Shown here: positions 1 through 38,536 of the stretch, piece after piece | How positions within the stretch are numbered: position 1 is the first letter of the stretch | How the letters are laid out: each line of letters opens with the position of its first letter | Source of the DNA: a virus | Direction: 5' to 3' (one strand) | IMG/VR virus record: IMGVR_UViG_3300045988_107209 | Coordinates: 1 to 39,378 of that record | Length of the DNA stretch: 39,378 bases | Position numbers and translations under genes: made by a program | Notes under the pieces: model-generated | Seen by the model: the letters and a program-made list of their open reading frames with translations, nothing else | Told to the model about the DNA's origin: nothing | The model's database searches: none

Positions 1-55
1 GTAATTAATGTTCTTGGCTTGCAGCCTTATTTGGATAACCTGATCAAGCTGCGTA
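1..55. repeat. 55-bp terminal direct repeat, identical to 39324..39378. Assembly overlap indicating a circular or circularly permuted genome of about 39323 bp.
   Basis: Direct comparison: gtaattaatgttcttggcttgcagccttatttggataacctgatcaagctgcgta occurs at both ends. Confidence 0.95.
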
Positions 56-72
56 GCACAAGAAGGATATAA
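1..72 (+). CDS. 3' end of the wrap-around ORF that starts at 39129. Small HTH-like DNA-binding protein, 89 aa in total.
   Basis: The reading frame from ATG 39129 continues through the overlap and stops at TAA 70..72. It contains the HTH-like stretch ITQGDLAEIIGCCSATVKTELNKLGV. Confidence 0.6.
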   Translation, partial: VINVLGLQPYLDNLIKLRSTRRI

Positions 73-99
73 AAAAGACCACTTATTAGGAAAGTGGCC
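71..99 (-). terminator. Rho-independent terminator oriented for leftward (minus-strand) transcription.
   Basis: Minus strand reads GGCCACTT-TCCTAAT-AAGTGGTC followed by TTTTTT. On the plus strand no T-run follows the hairpin. Confidence 0.45.
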
Positions 100-133
100 A
101 ATCAAAAATTAACAACTAAATTATAAACAAATA

Positions 134-153
134 ACTCAAATCTTGCAACCTGG
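134..153. repeat. Left arm of inverted repeat A (actcaaatcttgcaacctgg).
   Basis: Reverse complement of 358..377 with 18/20 matches. Both mismatches would be G-U pairs in a plus-strand RNA. Confidence 0.9.
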
Positions 154-192
154 GTATTGCCGTAAGTGACGGGGTCTGCTAAAAAAAGGATC

Positions 193-221
193 ATTATTTT
201 CATAATAGACCGATATCTCAA
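193..221 (-). promoter_or_regulatory. Sigma-70-like promoter on the minus strand (TTGAGA-N17-AATAAT).
   Basis: -35 at 221..216, 17-nt spacer, -10 at 198..193. It lies inside the segment bracketed by inverted repeat A. Confidence 0.35.
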
Positions 222-357
222 TACCTTCTTAAAAAATTGTCATAAATAATGCAAGCACGTCAGAAAAAAATCCATAATTGTAACTCGTAAAACTTCCTAA
301 GATAAAGCAAAAAAACACGTTTTAATTTGGGCATAAATAATCAGCAGACTGTGATAT

Positions 358-377
358 CCAGGTTGCAGGGTTTGAGT
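358..377. repeat. Right arm of inverted repeat A (ccaggttgcagggtttgagt).
   Basis: Pairs with 134..153. It ends 10 nt before the AAGGAG RBS of the early operon. Confidence 0.9.
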
Positions 378-434
378 AACAGATAAAAAGGAGAAAATCA
401 AAAATGAAACAATTTGTATTGAAAAAAAGTGGGA

Positions 435-1454: not shown

Positions 1455-1568
1455 ATGCCATTCTTTAAGGATATCGACGATTGGAGAGAATGGAACGACA
1501 ACCGTTATATAGATGATTCTGGTGAACCAGAAGAAGAAAAAGAGGATGAATCAAATGAAGATGAATAA
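1455..1568 (+). CDS. Small acidic protein (37 aa).
   Basis: Strong RBS AAGGAGG 7 nt upstream of ATG 1455. Below the ORF-track length cutoff. Confidence 0.5.
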   Translation: MPFFKDIDDWREWNDNRYIDDSGEPEEEKEDESNEDE

Positions 1569-2493
1569 AGTAATCAAACATAAGTTGCCAGCTACTCATG
1601 AAGAGTGGCTGGACAATCGTCTAAAGGGAATCGGTGGCTCTGATGCCGGTTCTGTTCTAGGCATGAATAAATACAAATCAGCTTACGCATTGTGGTGTGA
1701 GAAAACAGGTCGTATCCATAAAAATATCGACAATGAGCGTATGCGATTTGGCCGAGATATGGAGGATTATGTAGCAAAAAGATGGGAAGAAGAAACCGGC
1801 AAGAAATGCCGAAAGAGTGGATTTTCATTCCAATCTGTAGATCATCCATTCATGTTGGCCAACGTTGACCGCTTAGTTGTTGGTGAGGATGCAGGTCTCG
1901 AAATCAAGACCACGTCTGAATACAACAAGGATATATATTCGAAAGGAAACATTCCACCTCAGTATTATGCACAGTGTATGCATTATATGGCAGTTACCGG
2001 TCTTTCTAAGTGGTATATAGCTATTTATATTCCAGGAGTTGACTTGTACTGCTATGAAGTCCTTAGAAGCGATGATGAAGTCAATGCACTGATCGAGCAG
2101 GAGAAAGAGTTCTGGAACTGTGTGGAGAATGACATTGAACCGCCAATCGATGGGTCGGATTCCACTGCACAAGCAATCAGCGAATTACATCCAGTAGAAA
2201 ATGATGAAGACAACATTGTGGATCTAACTCCATTGCAGCAGGAACTGGATGCATTGAAGCTTGTCAAAGATAAAATCAAGGAGCTTCAGGATATTCAGAA
2301 AAAGCATGAGAATGAAGTTAAAAATTACTTAGGTGATTCTGGTATTGGAACATCTGACAAGTTCAAAGTTACATGGAAAACATCGATATCAAATACATTC
2401 GATACTAAAGAATTCAGAAAAGATGAGCCTGAACTTTATGATCAATATTTAACGCAAAGAAAAATGAGAAGATTTTTAGTCAAAGAACAGTAG
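1555..2493 (+). CDS. YqaJ/lambda-Exo-like recombination exonuclease.
   Basis: Motif GIGGSDAGSVLGMNKYKSAYALWCEKTG. Lies immediately upstream of recT. The start could be 1546, 1555 or 1561. Confidence 0.85.
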   Translation: MKMNKVIKHKLPATHEEWLDNRLKGIGGSDAGSVLGMNKYKSAYALWCEKTGRIHKNIDNERMRFGRDMEDYVAKRWEEETGKKCRKSGFSFQSVDHPFMLANVDRLVVGEDAGLEIKTTSEYNKDIYSKGNIPPQYYAQCMHYMAVTGLSKWYIAIYIPGVDLYCYEVLRSDDEVNALIEQEKEFWNCVENDIEPPIDGSDSTAQAISELHPVENDEDNIVDLTPLQQELDALKLVKDKIKELQDIQKKHENEVKNYLGDSGIGTSDKFKVTWKTSISNTFDTKEFRKDEPELYDQYLTQRKMRRFLVKEQ

Positions 2494-2507: not shown

Positions 2508-3314
2508 ATGACAACAACAAATCAACAAGGAATGATTGCAAAGACGCAGTCAAACACTGTGGCCAAAAAGCAATCAAAGACCATCAAGGAGTATATCTCA
2601 GTGATGTCAGGAGAAATCGCGAAGGCATTGCCTAGTGTAATGACTCCAGAACGATTCACACGAATCGCATTATCTGCAGTATCTAATAATGCCAAGCTAG
2701 CATCATGTACTCCACAGTCATTCTTGGCTGCAATGATGAATGCAGCACAATTAGGATTGGAACCTAACACTCCGTTAGGACAAGCCTATTTGATTCCGTA
2801 TGGTGGAGCTTGTCAGTTCCAGATTGGCTACAAGGGATTGATTGACCTGGCATATCGTTCAGGCGAAGTCAAGATGATTGATGCTCAAGTTGTTTATGAA
2901 AATGATGAGTTTGAGTATGAGCTTGGAATGGATCCGGTGCTTAAACATAAACCTGCAAGAACAAATCGAGGCAAGCCAATCTATTATTATGCAACGTTCA
3001 AATTAGTGAATGGTGGCCAAGGATTCCAGGTCATGTCGTATGAAGATGTTCTTGATCATGCGAAAAAATATTCTAAGTCATATAGCAGCGGCCCATGGGA
3101 AACAAACTTTGATGAAATGGCCAAGAAGACAGTTTTGAAGAAGCTGCTTAAATATGCACCATTAAAAACTGAATTCGTTAAGCAGGTGAATACAGATGAA
3201 TCAATCAAGACAACGATTAAAGAAGATATGACAGAAGTTCCAAATGAATTCTTTGATGCAGAATATCAGGAACAACCTGGTGAAGATCCAGTGACCGGAG
3301 AAATCAAAGAATAA
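2508..3314 (+). CDS. recT: RecT-family single-strand annealing recombinase.
   Basis: PQSFLAAMMNAAQLGLEPNTPLGQAYLIPYG and downstream RecT-like core. Paired with the exonuclease gene. Confidence 0.9.
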   Translation: MTTTNQQGMIAKTQSNTVAKKQSKTIKEYISVMSGEIAKALPSVMTPERFTRIALSAVSNNAKLASCTPQSFLAAMMNAAQLGLEPNTPLGQAYLIPYGGACQFQIGYKGLIDLAYRSGEVKMIDAQVVYENDEFEYELGMDPVLKHKPARTNRGKPIYYYATFKLVNGGQGFQVMSYEDVLDHAKKYSKSYSSGPWETNFDEMAKKTVLKKLLKYAPLKTEFVKQVNTDESIKTTIKEDMTEVPNEFFDAEYQEQPGEDPVTGEIKE

Positions 3315-3745: not shown

Positions 3746-3757
3746 AAAGGATTGCAT

Positions 3758-4711
3758 ATGTCGGAAATCAAGGATAATAGCAAAGTTTATTATTGGATCA
3801 AGTTGAAGACTGATTTTTTCGAAAGTGACGCAATCGATTTTCTTTTATCCCAGGAAGACGGATGTAAATACGTAACCCTATACATAAAATTGTGCACCAT
3901 GACATCAAATACAGATGGTGTTTTAGCTACAAAAATTGGCAATATATTAGTTCCATACACTGTCGATAAAATTGCACGTGACACAAAGTTTTTTTCCGCA
4001 GACACAGTCAGAGCGGCCCTTGAATTATTCCAGAATTTAAGACTGATTGTATCTGAGAACAATGTGATGAAGATTGCAAATTATGAATCGATGATTGGAT
4101 CGGAAACCGGATGGGCACAAAAAAAGCGATTGTATCGTGAAAATAAGAAGAAAAATCCGTCTGAAAAAAGCTCAAAAAAAGGCTCAAAAAACACTCGAAA
4201 AACGAGCTCAAAAACAGAAAAAAAATCGAAGGACAAAGTAGAGGACATTGTCCAGGACAAAAAAAGGACATTGTCCGATAAGAGATTAGAGTCTAGAGTC
4301 AAGAGTCTAGAGTCTAGAAATAAGTCAGTCAGTAGTCAGAAGTTAGATAGTGTGGCTGCGTCAAAAAGTGCAACAAACGAAAATGTGCAGACTGACTGGA
4401 CTGACTGTTTTGTTAAACCGTCCATTTCAGAAATCGTGGACTACATCCAGGAACACAACTTGAACGTAGATGCCAAAAAGTTTTGGAAACACTACGAATC
4501 CACCGGATGGAAGACAGGTAACGATCCTATCAGGGACTGGAGAGGGCTTTTGAAGAAATGGAGCAAAGCGGAACGTGAAGAAGACAATCCAGGAACCGGA
4601 GCAATCCAACTGGATGAGAAATTCTACGCTAAACCAGTCCAGGTGTCAGAAGAGCAACTGCAAAGCGAATTAGCGCAGCTGCAGGAAAAAATCAAAAATG
4701 GAGAACTGTGA
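3758..4711 (+). CDS. Phage replisome organizer with a DnaD-like C-terminal domain.
   Basis: N-terminus YYWIKLKTDFFESDAIDFLL. Lys/Ser-rich linker. C-terminus IVDYIQEHNLNVDAKKFWKHYESTGWK. Confidence 0.8.
   Translation: MSEIKDNSKVYYWIKLKTDFFESDAIDFLLSQEDGCKYVTLYIKLCTMTSNTDGVLATKIGNILVPYTVDKIARDTKFFSADTVRAALELFQNLRLIVSENNVMKIANYESMIGSETGWAQKKRLYRENKKKNPSEKSSKKGSKNTRKTSSKTEKKSKDKVEDIVQDKKRTLSDKRLESRVKSLESRNKSVSSQKLDSVAASKSATNENVQTDWTDCFVKPSISEIVDYIQEHNLNVDAKKFWKHYESTGWKTGNDPIRDWRGLLKKWSKAEREEDNPGTGAIQLDEKFYAKPVQVSEEQLQSELAQLQEKIKNGEL
4150..4400. promoter_or_regulatory. Putative origin of replication embedded in the organizer gene.
   Basis: Phased A-tracts with ~11-nt period (GCTCAAAAA x4). Palindrome GGACATTGTCC twice (4243..4253 and 4266..4276). 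AGAGTCT, GTCAGTCAG and GACTGACTG repeats. Confidence 0.55.
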
Positions 4712-10877: not shown

Positions 10878-11375
10878 ATGGCTAAACTGACTGAAAAGCA
10901 AAAGCTTTTTTGTGAGAAATATTTGATAACGATGAATGCAGTGGATGCTTATTTGGAAGTTTATAAGAATTGCAAGAGCCGAGATAATGCATCAAAGCAT
11001 GCATCCAGGTTATTAGCTTTACCGCATATCAGAGAATATGTGGATGAGTGTCTTGAGAAAGCGCACAGTAACAATGTGGCAGATGTTCAAGAAGTCATGG
11101 AATACCTCACAAAAGTAATGCGAAGAGAAATGAAAGAATCTGTTGTCGTTACAGTGACAAAAGAACATTCAGAGTATGTCGATACAGGAGATGGAAAGCC
11201 GAGAAAGAAAACAGTCAAAGAAGAAGTTCCTCAAATTGTTGAGATTCCTGCAAAGCTTTCTGATGCAAATAAAGCTGCGGAATTACTAGGAAAAAGATAT
11301 TCGTTATTTACGGATAAAGTTCAAGCAGAAATCGTAGTACCTAAGTTTGAAGGAGAAGATGAGCTTGAAGACTAA
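10878..11375 (+). CDS. terS: Terminase small subunit (P27/Terminase_2-like).
   Basis: LTEKQKLFCEKYLITMNAVDAYLEVY...ASRLLALPHIREYV. Lies immediately upstream of terL. Confidence 0.85.
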   Translation: MAKLTEKQKLFCEKYLITMNAVDAYLEVYKNCKSRDNASKHASRLLALPHIREYVDECLEKAHSNNVADVQEVMEYLTKVMRREMKESVVVTVTKEHSEYVDTGDGKPRKKTVKEEVPQIVEIPAKLSDANKAAELLGKRYSLFTDKVQAEIVVPKFEGEDELED

Positions 11376-12615
11376 ATCTATCAAGTTACCTAAAATAGTT
11401 GGAAAAGGATATAAATCCTATTGGAACTTCAGGGGACGTTATGCTGCATGCAAAGGTTCTCGTGCTTCTAAGAAGTCAAAAACAACTGCCTTACGCATCA
11501 TATACAACATGATGAAATACGATAAGTCGAATACATTAGTTGTGCGTAAGACTTATCGAACACTTAAAGATTCGTGCTTCACGGATTTAAAATGGGCAAC
11601 AAGAAGATTAGAGGTTGAACACTTATGGGAATTTAAATATTCGCCTTTGGAGGCAACATATCTTCCAACTGGGCAAAAAATTCTCTTTAGAGGGCTTGAT
11701 GATCCGTTAAAAATAACTTCCATTACTGTAGATTATGGGTTCCTATGTTGGGTATGGCTCGAAGAAGCTTATGAAATAACTAGCGAAAAAGACTTTGATA
11801 CATTGGATGAGTCGATTCGTGGTGAGTTACCGCCTTATCTTTGGAAACAGTGGATGATTACATTCAACCCATGGAATGAACACCACTGGCTTAAAAAAAG
11901 ATTCTTTGATGTAAAGAACGACCCTGATATATTAGCCATCACAACCAATTATAAGTGTAATGAATGGCTAGATGAAGCTGATTTAAGATTGTTCGATAAC
12001 ATGAAGGAGAAAAATCCTAGGCGATATCAAGTTGCTGGATTAGGAAATTGGGGTATTGTTGATGGATTGGTTTATGAGAATTGGAAAGAAGAAGAATTTA
12101 CACTAGATCAAGTTATTGACTGTGAATCTGTAAATGGTATTGACTTCGGTTATACAAATGATCCTGCTGCAGTTTTTATAGGTTTCATTGATACAGAACA
12201 TAAGAAACTCTATGTTTGGGATGAAATTTATAAAAAAGGTCTTTCCAATAAAAAGCTATATGAAGAGATTGAAAACGCGCATTATCAAAAGAAGTCTTTC
12301 ACAGCAGACTGTGCAGAACCTAAGTCGATTGATGAACTTAGGGGGTATGGTCTTCGTGTTGAAAAATCACAAAAGGGAAAGGATTCCATTACACATGGGA
12401 TTCAATATATTCAAGATTTCGAAATCATCATTCATCCTAGATGTGTTAATTTCATAACTGAAATTGGTAACTATACATGGGATGAAGATAGATTAGGAAA
12501 CAAAATAAATCGTCCAATTGATGATTTCAACCACTTAATGGATGCAATGCGTTATGCAGTTGAAAAATATACATTTGGACGAGTTAAATTAAGGACATTT
12601 AAAGGAGGTATTTAA
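11359..12615 (+). CDS. terL: Terminase large subunit (PBSX/Terminase_3-like).
   Basis: Walker-like CKGSRASKKSKT. C-terminal nuclease region GIDFGYTNDPAA...DDFNHLMDAMRYA. Confidence 0.9.
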   Translation: MSLKTKSIKLPKIVGKGYKSYWNFRGRYAACKGSRASKKSKTTALRIIYNMMKYDKSNTLVVRKTYRTLKDSCFTDLKWATRRLEVEHLWEFKYSPLEATYLPTGQKILFRGLDDPLKITSITVDYGFLCWVWLEEAYEITSEKDFDTLDESIRGELPPYLWKQWMITFNPWNEHHWLKKRFFDVKNDPDILAITTNYKCNEWLDEADLRLFDNMKEKNPRRYQVAGLGNWGIVDGLVYENWKEEEFTLDQVIDCESVNGIDFGYTNDPAAVFIGFIDTEHKKLYVWDEIYKKGLSNKKLYEEIENAHYQKKSFTADCAEPKSIDELRGYGLRVEKSQKGKDSITHGIQYIQDFEIIIHPRCVNFITEIGNYTWDEDRLGNKINRPIDDFNHLMDAMRYAVEKYTFGRVKLRTFKGGI

Positions 12616-29788: not shown

Positions 29789-31753
29789 ATGGCACAATTC
29801 AGTGGAAGTATAGGAATAAGCACAGGGCAAACAGACAAGTATTCGTTATTGTTGGATGTTTCAGAGAAATCTTATTCAATTGAAAATAACACATCTAAAG
29901 TTGAATGGTGGGTTGGTATTCGTTCAAATACTGCATACCATAATCACTATGGGTTGTCAGAAACTTATGTAGTTAATATCGATGGCACTGTAGTACACAA
30001 TGCAGTACATACACCTACAGTCAACAGTGGTGCTACTGTATGGGTAGCAAGTGGAACAACTACTGTATCACACAATGCAGATGGTTCTAAATCTATATCA
30101 GTCAGTGCATCGTTTGACAATGCAGACAGAGGAACATATTTACCAACGACAGGATCATGCAGTGGTAGTTTAAAGTTAACGACAATACCACGTGCAACTA
30201 CTCCTTCTATTGATAAACCGAGTTTAGATTGTGGTAGTGCAATTAAGATTAGTGGTACAAGTGCATCAAGCAACTTTTCGCATAAAGTTTATGTAACTTG
30301 GAATGGAACAAAAACACAAATAGGAACAATAGCTAGTGGTACAACAACCCCTAGCTTTTCTTATACCATTCCGACAGATTGGGAAAAGAATATTCCTGAT
30401 TCAACAAGTGGTATTGCTACATTTACATTAGAAACAATCAGTGGTTCAACGTCAGTTGGTTCTAAAACAGTAAATGCGACTATTAAAGTTAGAAGTAGTA
30501 TTGTTCCAACGATTGGAACTGTTGGTATTTCTGATACAAATTCAATTTGTGCAGGAATTGGACAATATGTTCAGAATCAATCGAAATTAAAATTCTCGAT
30601 TGCAACAAGTGGTAATCAAGGCTCAACGATCACATCAGTATCGACTAAATTCAATGGCCAAACATACAGTGGTAGCACATTTACAACTCAAGCGATTCAA
30701 AACAGTGGTACGTTAACTTACACAATCACAGTTACAGATTCACGTGGTCGTACTGCTACTAAGAGTGGTTCGGTATCTGTAGTTGCATACAATCCACCTA
30801 GTCTTACAAATATAAGTGCAAAGCGTGCTAACTCAGGCTATACAGTAGATGAATCAAGTGGTACGTATGCATTGCTACACTTCAAAGTTGGATTTACTAG
30901 TTTAAGTAATAAGAATGTAACATCATTCTATATTCAGTATCGAGCAAGCGGTGCTAGTTCGTGGACAAAAATTAATTCATGGGCTAATAACTACACTTTG
31001 GAACAAGATTACAAAGCAGGTAATTTATTTACCTCAACAACTACAACATATGAAATTGCATTCGGTGTTAAAGATAAATTTATGAGCGATTACTCATGGC
31101 AAATAGTTACAGTTACACCAACTTATACATTGATTAACTTTGGCAAAGATGGAAAATCATTAACTTTTTTCGGTCAAGATGGTAATAATGCTAACCGATT
31201 AACTGTTAATGGCGATTTAGTATCAAATAAATATAAATTCAGTTCAGTCAGTGAGAATACTTCATCAACTCATGTGTTGGTGGAGAATGGTAATGAAATT
31301 CAATATCGTGATTGGAATAAATTAGTTAATTCAATCAAGAGTGCGATGTATCCAGTAGGTTCAGTTTATATCACTTACAACAATGTCAACCCTGGCACAT
31401 TTTTAGGTGGAATATGGGAAAGATTCGGGCAAGGTAGAACTTTGGTCGGAGAAGGTACTGGGAATGATGGTAGTACAAGTATGTCCTTTACTGCGAATTC
31501 AACTGACGGAAAATACAAGAATACTCACTATCACGTAACTTCATTTGGTTGGGATGGAGATTATTTTTATGCAGGTAGACCAGACGGAGCAGTTAATAAT
31601 GCATACGACCGAACCTCAGTAATTCCAAATGGATATGGAATTCAAACTAGTTCTTTTATATCAAATCAAGTGCGATTGAATTGGACTGATAACTGTACTA
31701 TTGATAATGTACAACCATACATAGTTGTTTTCTTTTGGAGAAGGACCGCATAA
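29789..31753 (+). CDS. Receptor-binding tail fibre protein: DUF859-like N-terminus and tail-collar-like C-terminus. This is the expressed copy in the shufflon.
   Basis: MAQFSGSIGISTGQTDKYSLLLDVSEKSYSIENNTSKVEWW. C-terminus MYPVGSVYITYNNVNPGTFLGGIWERFGQGRTLVG...QPYIVVFFWRRTA. Confidence 0.8.
   Translation: MAQFSGSIGISTGQTDKYSLLLDVSEKSYSIENNTSKVEWWVGIRSNTAYHNHYGLSETYVVNIDGTVVHNAVHTPTVNSGATVWVASGTTTVSHNADGSKSISVSASFDNADRGTYLPTTGSCSGSLKLTTIPRATTPSIDKPSLDCGSAIKISGTSASSNFSHKVYVTWNGTKTQIGTIASGTTTPSFSYTIPTDWEKNIPDSTSGIATFTLETISGSTSVGSKTVNATIKVRSSIVPTIGTVGISDTNSICAGIGQYVQNQSKLKFSIATSGNQGSTITSVSTKFNGQTYSGSTFTTQAIQNSGTLTYTITVTDSRGRTATKSGSVSVVAYNPPSLTNISAKRANSGYTVDESSGTYALLHFKVGFTSLSNKNVTSFYIQYRASGASSWTKINSWANNYTLEQDYKAGNLFTSTTTTYEIAFGVKDKFMSDYSWQIVTVTPTYTLINFGKDGKSLTFFGQDGNNANRLTVNGDLVSNKYKFSSVSENTSSTHVLVENGNEIQYRDWNKLVNSIKSAMYPVGSVYITYNNVNPGTFLGGIWERFGQGRTLVGEGTGNDGSTSMSFTANSTDGKYKNTHYHVTSFGWDGDYFYAGRPDGAVNNAYDRTSVIPNGYGIQTSSFISNQVRLNWTDNCTIDNVQPYIVVFFWRRTA
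31479..31494 (+). repeat. Putative recombination site S0 (GTATGTCCTTTACTGC) inside the expressed fibre gene.
   Basis: Same 16-mer (GTATGTCNTTTACKGC) found inverted at three cassette starts. Lies exactly at the homology boundary. Confidence 0.75.
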
Positions 31754-31754
31754 A

Positions 31755-32009
31755 TTAAGCCGTCCTTTTCCAAAAATGTACTGTAATGTAAGGTTGAATG
31801 TTGTTATGAAATGCATCTTCACCTGTTTTAGATACATTAAATCCATATGCATTCGAGCCTTGAGTGATTGGTTTATTTTCTGCAAAAGGAGAACTTGTCT
31901 GTTTTGTTGAACCACCTCTAGCATATAATTTATGGTCATGACTTGGCATCTCATCTATAGTTAACTTATGTTTATATTCACCGCCAGTGCTATTGGCAGT
32001 AAATGACAT
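31755..32009 (-). other. Silent alternative fibre C-terminal cassette 1 (84 aa, canonical tail-collar tip).
   Basis: MSFTANSTGGEYKHKLTIDEMPSHDH...HNNIQPYITVHFWKRTA. No RBS. Its stop is 1 nt from the fibre gene stop. Confidence 0.8.
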
Positions 32010-32011: not shown

Positions 32012-32233
32012 CTATGCAGTCCTACGCCAAAAGTAGACTGTAATGTATGGTTGCACTAAAGATACTTTTGCACTATGTTCTCTGCTACCATTTCCTACAT
32101 CAGAACTACGAACAATAGTACGTTCGGTGTAATATGTCGGGCCGTCGTTCTTTCTTAAACCATATTGTTTGTCCGAGCTATTAAGAACATCCGAGTAATA
32201 TTTACCACCTGTAGAATTCGCAGTAAAAGACAT
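32012..32233 (-). other. Silent alternative fibre C-terminal cassette 2 (73 aa).
   Basis: MSFTANSTGGKYYSD...LVQPYITVYFWRRTA. Separated from cassette 1 by 2 nt. No RBS. Confidence 0.8.
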
Positions 32234-32240: not shown

Positions 32241-32441
32241 CTATTTAATTCTGTACCAAAAGTAGACAGTGATATAAGGTTGCAATAATGGTATCTTCGT
32301 TTTCATGTTTTTATTGTGATCATGAACACCCATTTGATTACCATTGCTATTAAGAAGTGCACCGTAATATATGTAACCTATATCATTACGTACCATAGAA
32401 TGAATGTACTCTCCGCCCGTGTCATTAGCCGTAAAAGACAT
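32241..32441 (-). other. Silent alternative fibre C-terminal cassette 3 (66 aa).
   Basis: MSFTANDTGGEYIHS...LLQPYITVYFWYRIK. The track ORF's upstream extension overlaps the recombinase 3' end and is not needed. Confidence 0.75.
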
Positions 32442-32443
32442 AC
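32428..32443 (-). repeat. Putative recombination site S3.
   Basis: Minus strand reads GTATGTCTTTTACGGC. Lies 5 nt from the recombinase stop codon. Confidence 0.7.
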
Positions 32444-32448
32444 ATTGA

Positions 32449-33342
32449 CTATTTGTAATAATCACAAAGCAGCTCAACACATTTTCGCTTTAATTCCATT
32501 TGTGGACGTACATAAATGTTCATTGTGATTGATACGTTGGAGTGGCCAAGCAATTCACTAAGTGATTTGTAGTCACATCCGCACTCAATGCATCTAGTGG
32601 CGAATGTATGTCGTAATGCGTGGAATTTGAGATGTGGTAGCTCAAGTTCTTTGAGGACTCTATTGTAGTAAAGTCTGTATTTGTTAGGTTCTATCGGCTT
32701 ATTTCGATTCGTTAATACATAGTTATCTGCATCACCTTGTAGAAGGATTGCGTAGTGCATTATCCATGTATTTAACGGAATCATTCGAGTACTGGAACGT
32801 GATTTAGGTGGTGTTATTGAAAGATGGCTACCATCTTCTTTGGTGTAGGTTCGTATCATGGTTTTGCTTATATTTAATAACTTGGTTTGAGTGTTTATAT
32901 CAGACCATTTTAAAGCGCACAGTTCACCTATGCGTATTCCTGTATGGATGCATAAAAGGATTCCAAAGTTTTTACAATTAATCTCAGATTGGAGGTGATT
33001 AATCAATGTTATTTGATTTTCTTTTTCAAAAATCTCTACCGCCTTAGAAGGATGGTATGGTAGTTGAATATCGACTTTGAATGGAAGTGTAAATTTTAAA
33101 ACCTGAATAATGTCTTTGGCATATTTGAATGATATACCACCTTTTCCGTCTTTACGGCCATTTTCAAGTTTTTGAAGAATAAACTCTTGTAAAATATCGT
33201 TATTCAAATCTTCAATCTGATAATTGCCTAGTTTTGGCATGATGTGATTGTGGATCACATTACAATAATTTGTGTAAGTGCTGTATTTTAGATAGATTTT
33301 CTTTTCCTTTAACCAGGATGTTAATTTGTCAGAATATAGCAT
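32449..33342 (-). CDS. Tyrosine site-specific recombinase (XerC/D/Rci-like size); candidate shufflon invertase.
   Basis: SAM-like N-terminal domain. Catalytic signature TGIRIGEL (R), HALRHTFAT (HxxR), LGHSNVSITMNIYV (H...Y). Confidence 0.9.
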   Translation of the reverse strand: MLYSDKLTSWLKEKKIYLKYSTYTNYCNVIHNHIMPKLGNYQIEDLNNDILQEFILQKLENGRKDGKGGISFKYAKDIIQVLKFTLPFKVDIQLPYHPSKAVEIFEKENQITLINHLQSEINCKNFGILLCIHTGIRIGELCALKWSDINTQTKLLNISKTMIRTYTKEDGSHLSITPPKSRSSTRMIPLNTWIMHYAILLQGDADNYVLTNRNKPIEPNKYRLYYNRVLKELELPHLKFHALRHTFATRCIECGCDYKSLSELLGHSNVSITMNIYVRPQMELKRKCVELLCDYYK

Positions 33343-33635: not shown

Positions 33636-33739
33636 AATTAATCGACCTTGTGAAGTCGTAAAACTCACACATGGTACAGAGACTGCACTTTAGCTCGTTC
33701 AAGCGGTCTTTTTTTGTGCCAAAAAAGAAGGAATTATAT

Positions 33740-33964
33740 ATGAATTTTGCATCTGCGTTTATTTCGATGACGCGTGGCCACAAGGTGGCGCGTAGTCACT
33801 GGAGTGGATATTGGCATATCGTCGATGGAATCATCATGATCCATACGAAAGATGGTATTGATTTAAAATTAACGGATTCAGACGATATTGTATATACAAT
33901 CAGCAATTGTGCATGTGATGACTGGCACATTGTTGACAACTATGGAGTTAGCAAGGAGAGGTAG
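33740..33964 (+). CDS. DUF2829-like protein (the family that includes the anti-Thoeris protein Tad2).
   Basis: MNFASAFISMTRGHKVARSHWSG...DDWHIV matches the M-F-x-A...G-x-KV-x-R-x-x-W-x-G ... DW-x-IV pattern. Confidence 0.5.
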   Translation: MNFASAFISMTRGHKVARSHWSGYWHIVDGIIMIHTKDGIDLKLTDSDDIVYTISNCACDDWHIVDNYGVSKER

Positions 33965-35777: not shown

Positions 35778-35906
35778 AATTTAATAAAATAAGTGTCAAA
35801 AACTCAAATATTGACACAAAACAGTACAAAATGTACGTAAAATGATTCAAAATATCAAAAAATGACACAAAAGTTGAACTAAACTATATTTTTAATGACT
35901 AAATCC

Positions 35907-35938
35907 GAGCCTACGTGTAATGCGTAGGTTCTTTTTTT
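35907..35938 (+). terminator. Rho-independent terminator ending the late operon.
   Basis: GAGCCTACG-TGTAATG-CGTAGGTTC followed by T7. Confidence 0.75.
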
Positions 35939-36020
35939 GTTGTGAAATTATAATAAAATTGAGATATAAATTATGTCTTGATTATATCTTGAAAAAAATT
36001 TAATATTTTAAACAAAACTA

Positions 36021-36049
36021 TTGAATTACGATGTTTAATATGTTAAAAT
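36021..36049 (+). promoter_or_regulatory. Near-consensus sigma-70 promoter with an extended -10 element.
   Basis: TTGAAT, 17-nt spacer ending TGt, then TAAAAT. Lies about 30 nt upstream of the xre-like gene. Confidence 0.65.
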
Positions 36050-36080
36050 CCAAGTGTACAAAAGAAAGGTGGTGATTGAG

Positions 36081-38121: not shown

Positions 38122-38143
38122 CTGGGCAGTACTTGAGGTGTCA
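38122..38143. repeat. Left arm of inverted repeat B (ctgggcagtacttgaggtgtca).
   Basis: Reverse complement of 38468..38490 with 2 transition mismatches and one 1-nt bulge. Confidence 0.9.
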
Positions 38144-38467
38144 TTTCAAGCATAGAAAGGAATAGATTCCATTAGTGCTCATTGCTATCGTCAAGAATCA
38201 TGGTTCTAGCGCTACCTACAAACATTCGCAGAATCTAGATTCTAAAACATGAGGTCCCCTTATCATACTGACATGGCAAAATCTGAATGACATGAAAATA
38301 TCTCTTGTTCGCAAATCAAAAGAAATAGACGCTGTTTTGTTTTTATCATAAAAGAATGAGGTGAAGAATCGCCTCCAAAACTAATTATTGCTCTAATATC
38401 TAAAAATTAATCGGACAAAAGTGTTCGCACACAAAACAGTGACCTAATCATGTTGATAAGTAAGAAG

Positions 38468-38490
38468 TGGCACCTCAAGTGCTGCACCAG
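38468..38490. repeat. Right arm of inverted repeat B (tggcacctcaagtgctgcaccag).
   Basis: Pairs with 38122..38143. Both mismatches would be G-U pairs in a plus-strand RNA. Confidence 0.9.
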
Positions 38491-38536
38491 AACATAGTAG
38501 AACATAGTAGAACGCAGTAGAAAGGAGTAGAACATG
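38489..38536 (+). repeat. 4.8 tandem copies of a 10-nt unit (AGAACATAGT, AGAACATAGT, AGAACGCAGT, AGAAAGGAGT, AGAACATG).
   Basis: Read directly from the sequence. The fourth unit supplies the RBS and the fifth the ATG of the next gene. Confidence 0.9.

Follow-up and report, generated by a model that had tools for sequence, protein, structure and literature searches.

Strand-specific pairing of a long-range inverted repeat ahead of the early operon in a family of human-gut phages

RNase III stems are known both as the long-range stalks around the 16S and 23S ribosomal RNA (rRNA) precursors and as the intercistronic sites in the early mRNA of phage T7. The RecV switches of Clostridioides difficile (cwpV, flgB) and fimS of Escherichia coli are built of imperfect inverted repeats of ~20 nucleotides (nt) that flank 150–300 base pairs (bp) of DNA and are served by a tyrosine recombinase; in the cwpV and flgB switches, the invertible DNA is situated within a transcribed leader. 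Both kinds of element come to mind at positions 134–377 of the virus record IMGVR_UViG_3300045988_107209, where an inverted repeat encloses an AT-rich spacer just upstream of an early operon for recombination and replication. The whole stretch of 39,378 nt that was analysed is called the window below. An earlier reading of this DNA, made from the letters alone (the sequence-only reading), had left two explanations side by side, a long-range RNA helix and an invertible promoter segment; the helix is now strongly supported, while inversion is possible but rare. Taken as a whole, we consider it slightly better than an even bet (a probability of roughly 0.55) that the element forms a long-range plus-strand RNA helix serving as a site of double-stranded RNA (dsRNA) processing or stability in read-through early transcripts.

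The inverted repeat was recovered where the sequence-only reading had placed it, and a repeat search extended its arms to 24 nt (134–157 and 354–377) with 21 of the 24 positions in Watson–Crick register. Once G-U pairs are allowed, the arms 134–160 and 351–377 form 27 consecutive pairs; the complete stem consists of 26–27 pairs, a one-sided loop of 12 nt and 8 further pairs, the latter being the second helix that had been described as stacked inside the arms. All three mismatches of the 24-nt arms are, as had been noticed, G-U pairs on the plus strand and A-C mismatches on the minus strand. The ribosome-binding site (RBS) of the operon does begin 10 nt past the right arm, leaving 9 nt between the arm end and the RBS. 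A degenerate arm pattern with up to three mismatches occurs at two sites only in the 39 kb window, the arms themselves, compared with 0 expected from 100 shuffles. Folding of the element gave −67.5 kcal/mol for the plus strand (z = −5.6) and −62.6 kcal/mol for the minus strand (z = −3.3).

Relatives were gathered with the degenerate arm pattern (39 IMG/VR loci and 57 metagenome-contig loci) and, in addition, via neighbouring genes. The element occupies one genomic position in ~85 gut phage contigs, which represent ~70 distinct sequences. After removal of duplicates, 69 distinct sequences in the window orientation were aligned, and the family-wide figures given below refer to this set unless stated otherwise. 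The left flank of the relatives contains a conserved hairpin and a TATAAT-containing spacer, and the right arm ends 6–16 nt before an RBS, with any of the three different genes that are found downstream.

The pairing is kept on one strand. When the alignment is read as plus strand, 2345 of the 2346 pair cells (34 pairs in 69 sequences) are retained, i.e., 99.96%, versus 83% in the minus-strand reading. There are 15 pair columns with G-U on the plus strand and 0 with A-C (binomial p = 6e-5), hence the G-U bias that the sequence-only reading had drawn from three positions in favour of an RNA structure extends across the family. Because G-U on the plus strand arises from just half of the possible transitions off Watson–Crick pairs, a ratio of 15:0 is unexpected under neutral change. 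Mutational strand bias as the source of the wobble pattern is ruled out by the balanced transition polymorphisms of the flanking genes (279 A/G versus 227 C/T sites). All variants of the left arm retain plus-strand pairing, and the two main variants of the right arm each pair with an unchanged left arm via different G-U wobbles. The second helix varies by G-U or by compensation, as in L018, L035 and the L220 family (GATCCGC/GCGGATT). What is maintained in a strand-specific manner is a helix of 26 + 8 pairs, i.e., of at least 20 pairs, as in a dsRNA stem. The internal loop between the two helices carries a conserved TGACGTG-like motif, which reads TGACGGG in the window. The interior exists in two alternative left-hand sequence versions and differs among relatives by indels and by the length of its poly-A tracts.

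The conserved helix with its strand-specific wobbles recurs in unrelated sequence, and the genome of the window holds a second copy of the design. The L220 group (L220, L224 and L225) shares the upstream gene with the window and has a different downstream operon. Its element is shorter (172–177 nt), and its arms differ from those of the window at six outer positions; nevertheless, the stem comprises 27 pairs with 6 G-U and 0 A-C, including full compensatory changes at arm positions 1 and 5 and compensation in helix 2. In three more groups, stems of 24–29 pairs with unrelated arm sequences were found at the equivalent position. Two of these groups (L195 and L197) were reached via the exonuclease, at 55–57% identity; in the third (L183), the exonuclease is 96% identical and the spacer different. 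The small upstream proteins of all three show only ~20–24% identity to that of the window. The L195 stem has 27 pairs (5 G-U, 0 A-C), the L183 stem 24 pairs (4 G-U, 1 A-C), and L197 possesses a stem of 29 pairs (4 G-U, 1 A-C) together with a second one of 24 pairs (3 G-U, 1 A-C). The plus strand folds better than the minus strand in L195 (−72.9 versus −47.1 kcal/mol) as well as in L197 (−62.8 versus −48.5 kcal/mol). In a stem scan of 25 loci on both strands, the five analogue stems scored 18–24 and every other stem 16.9 or less. The analogue stems have a shared placement, after a small regulator gene and a hairpin and just before the next RBS. The two stems of L197 follow one another on the plus strand between the small regulator and exonuclease genes (2745–2980 of that locus), and minus-strand terminator-like hairpins, an A-run and then a GC stem, are seen there after the regulator gene and after the first stem.

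When the whole window was scanned for stems, the 134–377 element ranked first, and the runner-up was another plus-strand stem, located in the spacer before a DUF4176 gene. It consists of 22 pairs, 3 of them G-U, around 316 enclosed nt. Among 40 distinct relatives, this second stem shows 9 G-U columns and 0 A-C, although its interior ranges from 222 to 428 nt and at least four unrelated interior versions have been swapped. These versions have short motifs in common, namely TTCGCAAA and a GAGGTG...CCTCC hairpin. A likeness between the arms of the two stems of the window (CTCAAnTnnTGCA), weak and noticed by eye, was judged compatible with chance. Directly before the DUF4176 ATG, four tandem 10-nt units (GAACATAGTA, GAACATAGTA, GAACGCAGTA and GAAAGGAGTA) occupy positions 38490–38533, and the last unit holds the RBS. 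Summed over the family, the analogues and the second stem, the wobble positions speak for the plus strand in ~46 cases and for the minus strand in 3. These comparisons are strong evidence that pairing at 134–377 is required of a nucleic acid with the plus-strand sequence, RNA being the simplest candidate.

We propose that an early transcript would read from the upstream small-regulator gene through the spacer into the recombination/replication operon. The hairpin at 77–99, which follows the upstream gene, lacks a U tract on the plus strand and thus would not stop such read-through. In the plus-strand RNA, the arms would pair and close off the AT-rich spacer of ~160 nt, which probably holds DNA-level signals such as promoter(s) and operator-like motifs. 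Both arms would be present solely in read-through transcripts, and the stem may serve as a substrate of a double-strand-specific RNase (of the RNase III type) or as a stability or insulation element. Its action would uncouple the downstream message from the upstream one and define the 5′ terminus of the operon mRNA. Transcripts begun inside the spacer would carry the right arm alone and hence escape. The steps that we infer here are that the selected strand is RNA and not single-stranded DNA, that a transcript spanning both arms exists, and that the stem is cleaved.

Several points weigh against this proposal. A plus-strand single-stranded DNA hairpin would yield the identical wobble pattern, and cleavage by RNase III is suggested solely by the length and perfection of the helix. 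No plus-strand promoter was identified upstream of position 134. No conserved RNA fold was predicted in the interior from the 69-sequence alignment, and a search of Rfam 15 gave no match in the whole window, with only chance-level matches (E > 0.5) within 1–520. Between the window and L220 families, arm positions 11–24 are far better conserved than positions 1–10; this conservation exceeds the need for pairing and suggests that the DNA itself is under a further constraint, for instance as the −35 hexamer of a leftward promoter, as a protein site or as a crossover site. Finally, inversion of the enclosed DNA has really occurred in one lineage, and the genes of the phage include one for an invertase that looks active.

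At the DNA level, the arms are inverted repeats, and the segment between them can therefore invert. The invertible segment put forward by the sequence-only reading is borne out to this extent: it has flipped in one lineage, at 158–353 exactly, and with one lineage among ~70 distinct sequences inversion is rare in assemblies. In the IMG/VR contig L001, the flanks are in the usual order and the interior is reversed. A BLAST comparison with its nearest relatives (L222, L011 and L012, all in the usual orientation) showed collinear flanks and reversal of exactly the arm-to-arm segment, at 93–97% identity. The arms of L001 are reciprocal chimeras (left ...ATCT..GGATAT, right ...ACCC..GGGTAT): the left arm has kept the outer T8/T10 and gained the inner A21, and the right arm has kept the outer C8/C10 and gained G21. 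The crossover therefore took place between arm positions 10 and 21, within TGCAACCTGG; it falls at arm positions 11–20, in or just past the core TGCAACC. Contig 137085 (loci L010 and L003) is in the same inverted state and, being 100% identical to L001 over 2587 nt, is counted with it as one lineage. An assembly artefact is unlikely, since the arms share 10 identical bases, far below assembly word sizes; the window itself is a circular contig whose first 55 nt are identical to its last 55 nt, an overlap that suggests assembly with k = 55.

The orientation of the window is found in every other complete copy (36 viral, 48 metagenomic) and in every partial one. About ten contigs that end inside the element were considered as a sign of mixed orientation and rejected, as their break points do not coincide with the branch point that was predicted, and strain variation and poly-A tracts would account for them just as well. 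The inner wobbles (arm positions 21 and 24–26, and helix 2) flip with the DNA and fit the plus strand in the window orientation only; in the inverted relative, the plus strand has A-C mismatches in their place. This indicates that the element has been in one orientation for nearly all of its history and was selected that way. We regard the natural inversion as an occasional recombination event rather than the purpose of the element.

The same observations bear on the possibility that the element is a programmed invertible switch, which seems rather unlikely to us. The arms would then be sites for the 297-aa (amino acid) tyrosine recombinase of the phage or for a host enzyme, and the flip of 158–353 would switch the early operon by altering the direction of an internal promoter or the behaviour of a leader RNA, as in the fimS or RecV switches. 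Inverted repeats do bracket a short intergenic segment beside an operon, as in invertons, and the likeness to fimS and the RecV switches in size and repeat length, to which the sequence-only reading had drawn attention, is real. The exact arm-to-arm inversion in one phage with uninverted nearest relatives speaks for a switch, and so does the core TGCAACC, which is common to both arms in all but one of the distinct relatives (L126, with a G in the left core) and persists in the divergent L220 family. Leftward transcripts would be halted by a minus-strand terminator that lies just beyond the left arm. A switch could well coexist with an RNA stem, but as the main function it is argued against by the orientation counts (one independent inverted case, with 48 of the 48 complete metagenome copies and all partial ones in a single orientation), by inner wobbles that suit that orientation only, and by the unrelated arms in four other phage groups, which the sites of one recombinase would not explain. 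Rare inversion between 24-nt repeats could also be brought about by RecT and the exonuclease or by template switching during replication.

The enzyme in question lies beside a tail-fibre gene with three spare C-terminal cassettes, each of which starts with MSFTAN.TGG and ends with QPYITV.FW.R... in its product. Cassette order and orientation differ among 51 related loci, with different cassettes joined to the fibre, hence an invertase is active in this phage lineage; relatives carry a separate arm-type integrase, which leaves the 297-aa enzyme free for that role. The rearrangements fit inversion at repeats at the junction of the constant and variable parts (GTATGTCnTTTACnGCnAAT). These crossover repeats are unlike the arms, and a recombination site shared by the arms and the fibre shufflon was rejected on this ground. 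The right arm together with helix 2 does have its best genome-wide match in the C-terminal coding end of fibre cassette 3, although with a score of 28 against a shuffled maximum of 30, and with 1 of 40 shuffled queries scoring as high, the similarity is marginal. No recombinase has so far been linked to the 134–377 arms.

The particular switch that had been suggested, inversion of a minus-strand promoter towards the operon, finds no support. The promoter-like sequence TTGAGA-N17-AATAAT (221..193) is present in the window but is not conserved: its −10 hexamer AATAAT is private to the window, relatives that keep this stretch read AAGAAT, and part of the promoter is deleted in several relatives, the inverted lineage included. 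Promoter-like matches within 1–1500 are no commoner than chance would have it (4 found versus 5.6 expected from shuffles). A promoter scan of 37 aligned elements on both strands yielded three conserved but weaker candidates, GTGACG-N15-17-GATCAT/TATATT and (A/T)TGCAA-N15-19-CATAAT on the plus strand and (C/T)TGACG-N16-GACAAT on the minus strand, all of them moderate and not convincing, with spacers that vary with poly-A. The poly-A tracts at 262–270 and 309–315 contain ~5–11 A among the aligned relatives, so that the spacing changes in every candidate promoter that spans them. No terminator was found inside the element, and no conserved promoter or terminator with an orientation-dependent output was identified there. 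The interior nevertheless probably carries promoter or operator DNA; it contains a conserved inverted motif pair, TGACGTG / CACGTCA.

A leftward promoter-like site is better preserved. Its −35 hexamer lies inside the left arm, and its TATAAT is at a constant offset in 66 of 68 distinct flanks. Equivalents exist in all three of the distant groups that were examined (TTGCAG-N17-TATAAT in L220, TGCTATAAT in L197 and TGTTATACT in L195). The hairpin 99..77 further left is the only strong minus-strand terminator within the plus-strand early region, and its arrangement of an A-run and then a hairpin is also found in L195, L197 and L220. From promoter and terminator together, an antisense RNA of ~45 nt (113 to ~68, minus strand) is predicted, whose end would overlie the stop codon of the upstream gene, and the promoter may be the reason why arm positions 10–24 are conserved beyond the need for pairing.

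The leftward site is also part of a reading in which the inner arm halves (CCAGGTTGCA) are paired DNA operators, bound by a phage regulator such as the 88-aa upstream protein, with RNA pairing as a secondary matter. The operators would overlap the leftward −35, loop out the spacer and control its promoters. The uneven conservation along the arms, the supply of a conserved promoter's −35 by the left arm and the further inverted pair in the interior are in keeping with operators, and a spacing of ~220 bp would suit looping. We nonetheless hold this reading to be improbable. It explains neither the 15:0 strand bias of the wobbles nor a complementarity of 34 pairs that includes outer positions diverged with compensation, the unrelated arms in other phages that behave alike are likewise unaccounted for, and the 88-aa protein has no detectable family.

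Integron attC sites and the attP hairpin of the CTX phage are recognised as folded strands. By analogy, the stems could be folded-strand sites (hairpins or paired repeats) for the small tyrosine recombinase of the phage, at which a regulatory cassette would be inverted or exchanged; we give this only a slim chance. In that case, inversion at 134–377 would switch the lytic early operon heritably in a temperate gut phage, and the swapped interiors of the second stem would reflect cassette exchange.

Insertion of a miniature inverted-repeat transposable element into the intergenic spacer is largely refuted and very improbable. The element does have ~26-nt terminal inverted repeats, an AT-rich interior of ~190 nt and a promoter half-site at one end, properties also of the Correia elements, which in addition bind RNase III (PMC2649163). 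It is, however, single-copy in the window, with a constant genomic position in all relatives and no visible target-site duplication, and a search of 185,579 representative bacterial and archaeal genomes with its arm pattern gave no copy, only two isolated matches to a single arm.

Table 1. Features of the 134–377 element, of the second stem and of their surroundings in the window
Feature	Coordinates	Strand	Remarks
Left arm (helix 5′ strand)	134..160	+	Arm positions 1–27; nearly invariant in 69 distinct relatives
Core TGCAACC	144..150	+	Arm positions 11–17; partner GGTTGCA at 361–367
12-nt asymmetric internal loop	161..172	+	CGTAAGTGACGG; between the two helices
Second helix, 5′ strand	173..180	+	GGTCTGCT; pairs with 343–350
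AT-rich interior	181..342	.	~160 nt; conserved blocks 250–285 and 290–342
Second helix, 3′ strand	343..350	+	AGCAGACT
Right arm (helix 3′ strand)	351..377	+	Two main variants, GTGATATCCAGG and GCAGTACCTAGG
Intrinsic terminator	67..99	-	Stem 99..77, then TTTTTTATAT; abuts stop codon 69–71 of the upstream gene
Leftward promoter-like site	120..148	-	−35 TTGCAA (148..143) inside left arm, −10 TATAAT (125..120) in flank
Upstream 88-aa gene	starts 39129, stop codon 69–71	+	3′ end at 1..71, after the circular junction
RBS AAAGGAG	387–393	+	First gene of early operon
Start ATG	404	+	Opens first early-operon gene; conserved in relatives
Exonuclease	1513–2493		Early operon; YqaJ Pfam mark on homologous locus L219
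RecT	2508–3314		Early operon; RecT Pfam mark on homologous locus L219
Replisome organiser	3752–4711		Early operon, downstream of ATG 404
Large terminase	11347–12615
Tail-fibre gene	29789–31753
Spare C-terminal fibre cassettes (three)	31755–32009, 32012–32233, 32241–32480	-	Between fibre gene and recombinase
Tyrosine recombinase, 297 aa	32449–33342	-	Sole recombinase found in the window (part of the open reading frames scanned)
Second stem, left arm	38126..38147	+	Sequence-unrelated long-range helix, early region
Second stem, right arm	38464..38485	+	Ends 35 nt before RBS of DUF4176 gene

The window represents a tailed-phage genome of ~39.3 kb, and the related contigs all come from human-gut metagenomes (Table 1). 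No DNA match was obtained in 50,697 phage records, and the phage has no cultured relative. The terminase reaches no more than 60% identity with those of uncultured faecal phages and ~50% with those of Bacillus and Streptococcus phages. No prophage with the arm pattern was found among the representative bacterial and archaeal genomes searched. An order of terminase, portal, capsid and tail genes is suggested by the sizes and positions of the open reading frames, and an amidase endolysin and an XRE-type regulator were identified in addition to the tail-fibre gene with its spare cassettes. As the window is circular, the 88-aa upstream gene crosses its end. The protein is probably of a small helix-turn-helix type; it has no family match, and widening of the family through it returned near relatives only.

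The phage group is temperate, to judge from the relative L094: immediately before the early region that it has in common with the window, it encodes an arm-type integrase and a CI-like repressor. The window genome has neither an arm-type integrase nor a CI-like repressor; ~300 nt (35778–36080) separate its endolysin and XRE genes. At the same place, L094 (1–6400) has genes for the integrase (359 aa), for NYN, bPH and DUF3800 proteins and for a 129-aa helix-turn-helix repressor. Many IMG/VR contigs of the family begin near the endolysin/XRE interval. The first operon gene is split in the window: the frame of ATG 404 has 20 codons and stops at 466, and a long frame extends from 429/444 to 1199. 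In the relatives L219 and L222, the MKQFVLKK frame extends over 125 aa, and a distinct 134-aa gene comes next. The 256-aa product of the long frame resembles a fusion of two homologous halves, and runs of seven A at 423–429 and 455–461 make a frameshift or a sequencing slip possible. A 97-aa open reading frame (33671–33964) has a sub-threshold match to the Tad2-like domain of Thoeris anti-defence (E = 7e-4, 20.5 bits with a cut-off of 25).

The element calls for caution in inverton surveys: its arms could pass for those of a typical invertible promoter, and at least one flip has taken place, but the substitutions indicate strand-specific pairing as the function under selection. Were its inversion programmed, the element would count among the earliest intergenic invertons to be described from a gut phage; a survey of 2026 presents the putative viral invertons that it lists as the first to be reported from metagenome-assembled gut viral genomes (PMC13501310). 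If, on the other hand, the stems are real RNA elements, temperate human-gut Bacillota phages share an undescribed design, in which two long-range dsRNA stems per early region would close off promoter-bearing spacers just upstream of RBSs, the structure being conserved while the sequence changes between phage groups. For phages that have no cultured representative, this would open a new way to study the separation, timing or stabilisation of early transcripts, possibly those of the lysis-lysogeny decision, and the ~70 natural variants would be a ready set for covariation work.

The oop RNA of phage lambda is a short leftward unit between a small regulator and the replication genes, and its terminator reaches into the 3′ end of the regulator gene. 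The predicted promoter-terminator pair at 148..67 is similar in layout; the RNA of ~45 nt is predicted here from sequence only, and homology is not claimed. As in the RecV and fimS switches, the repeats of the phage element are placed just upstream of an operon, and one natural inversion is seen in the phage family. Unlike in these switches, the wobbles suit a single orientation, no recombinase has been linked to the arms, and no orientation-dependent signal was identified. According to PMC2649163, the Correia elements of Neisseria consist of ~26-nt inverted repeats around 100–150 nt and can create promoters at their ends, and their hairpins bind RNase III and are cleaved or protected, with altered expression of adjacent genes. 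Correia elements are mobile, with hundreds of copies, whereas the phage element is single-copy, fixed in position and found in phages of a Bacillota-type host. Compared with RNase III stems, the phage stem has no similarity to any curated RNA family. It is long-range with its cleavage proposed, unlike the local hairpins of T7, and the enclosed segment is an AT-rich spacer without a conserved fold, unlike the structured RNA within the rRNA stalks. Nevertheless, it resembles RNase III sites in being a near-perfect stem of more than 20 pairs between the cistrons of what would be a polycistronic transcript, and, as in the rRNA stalks, a distance of hundreds of nucleotides separates its two strands, with a segment enclosed between them.

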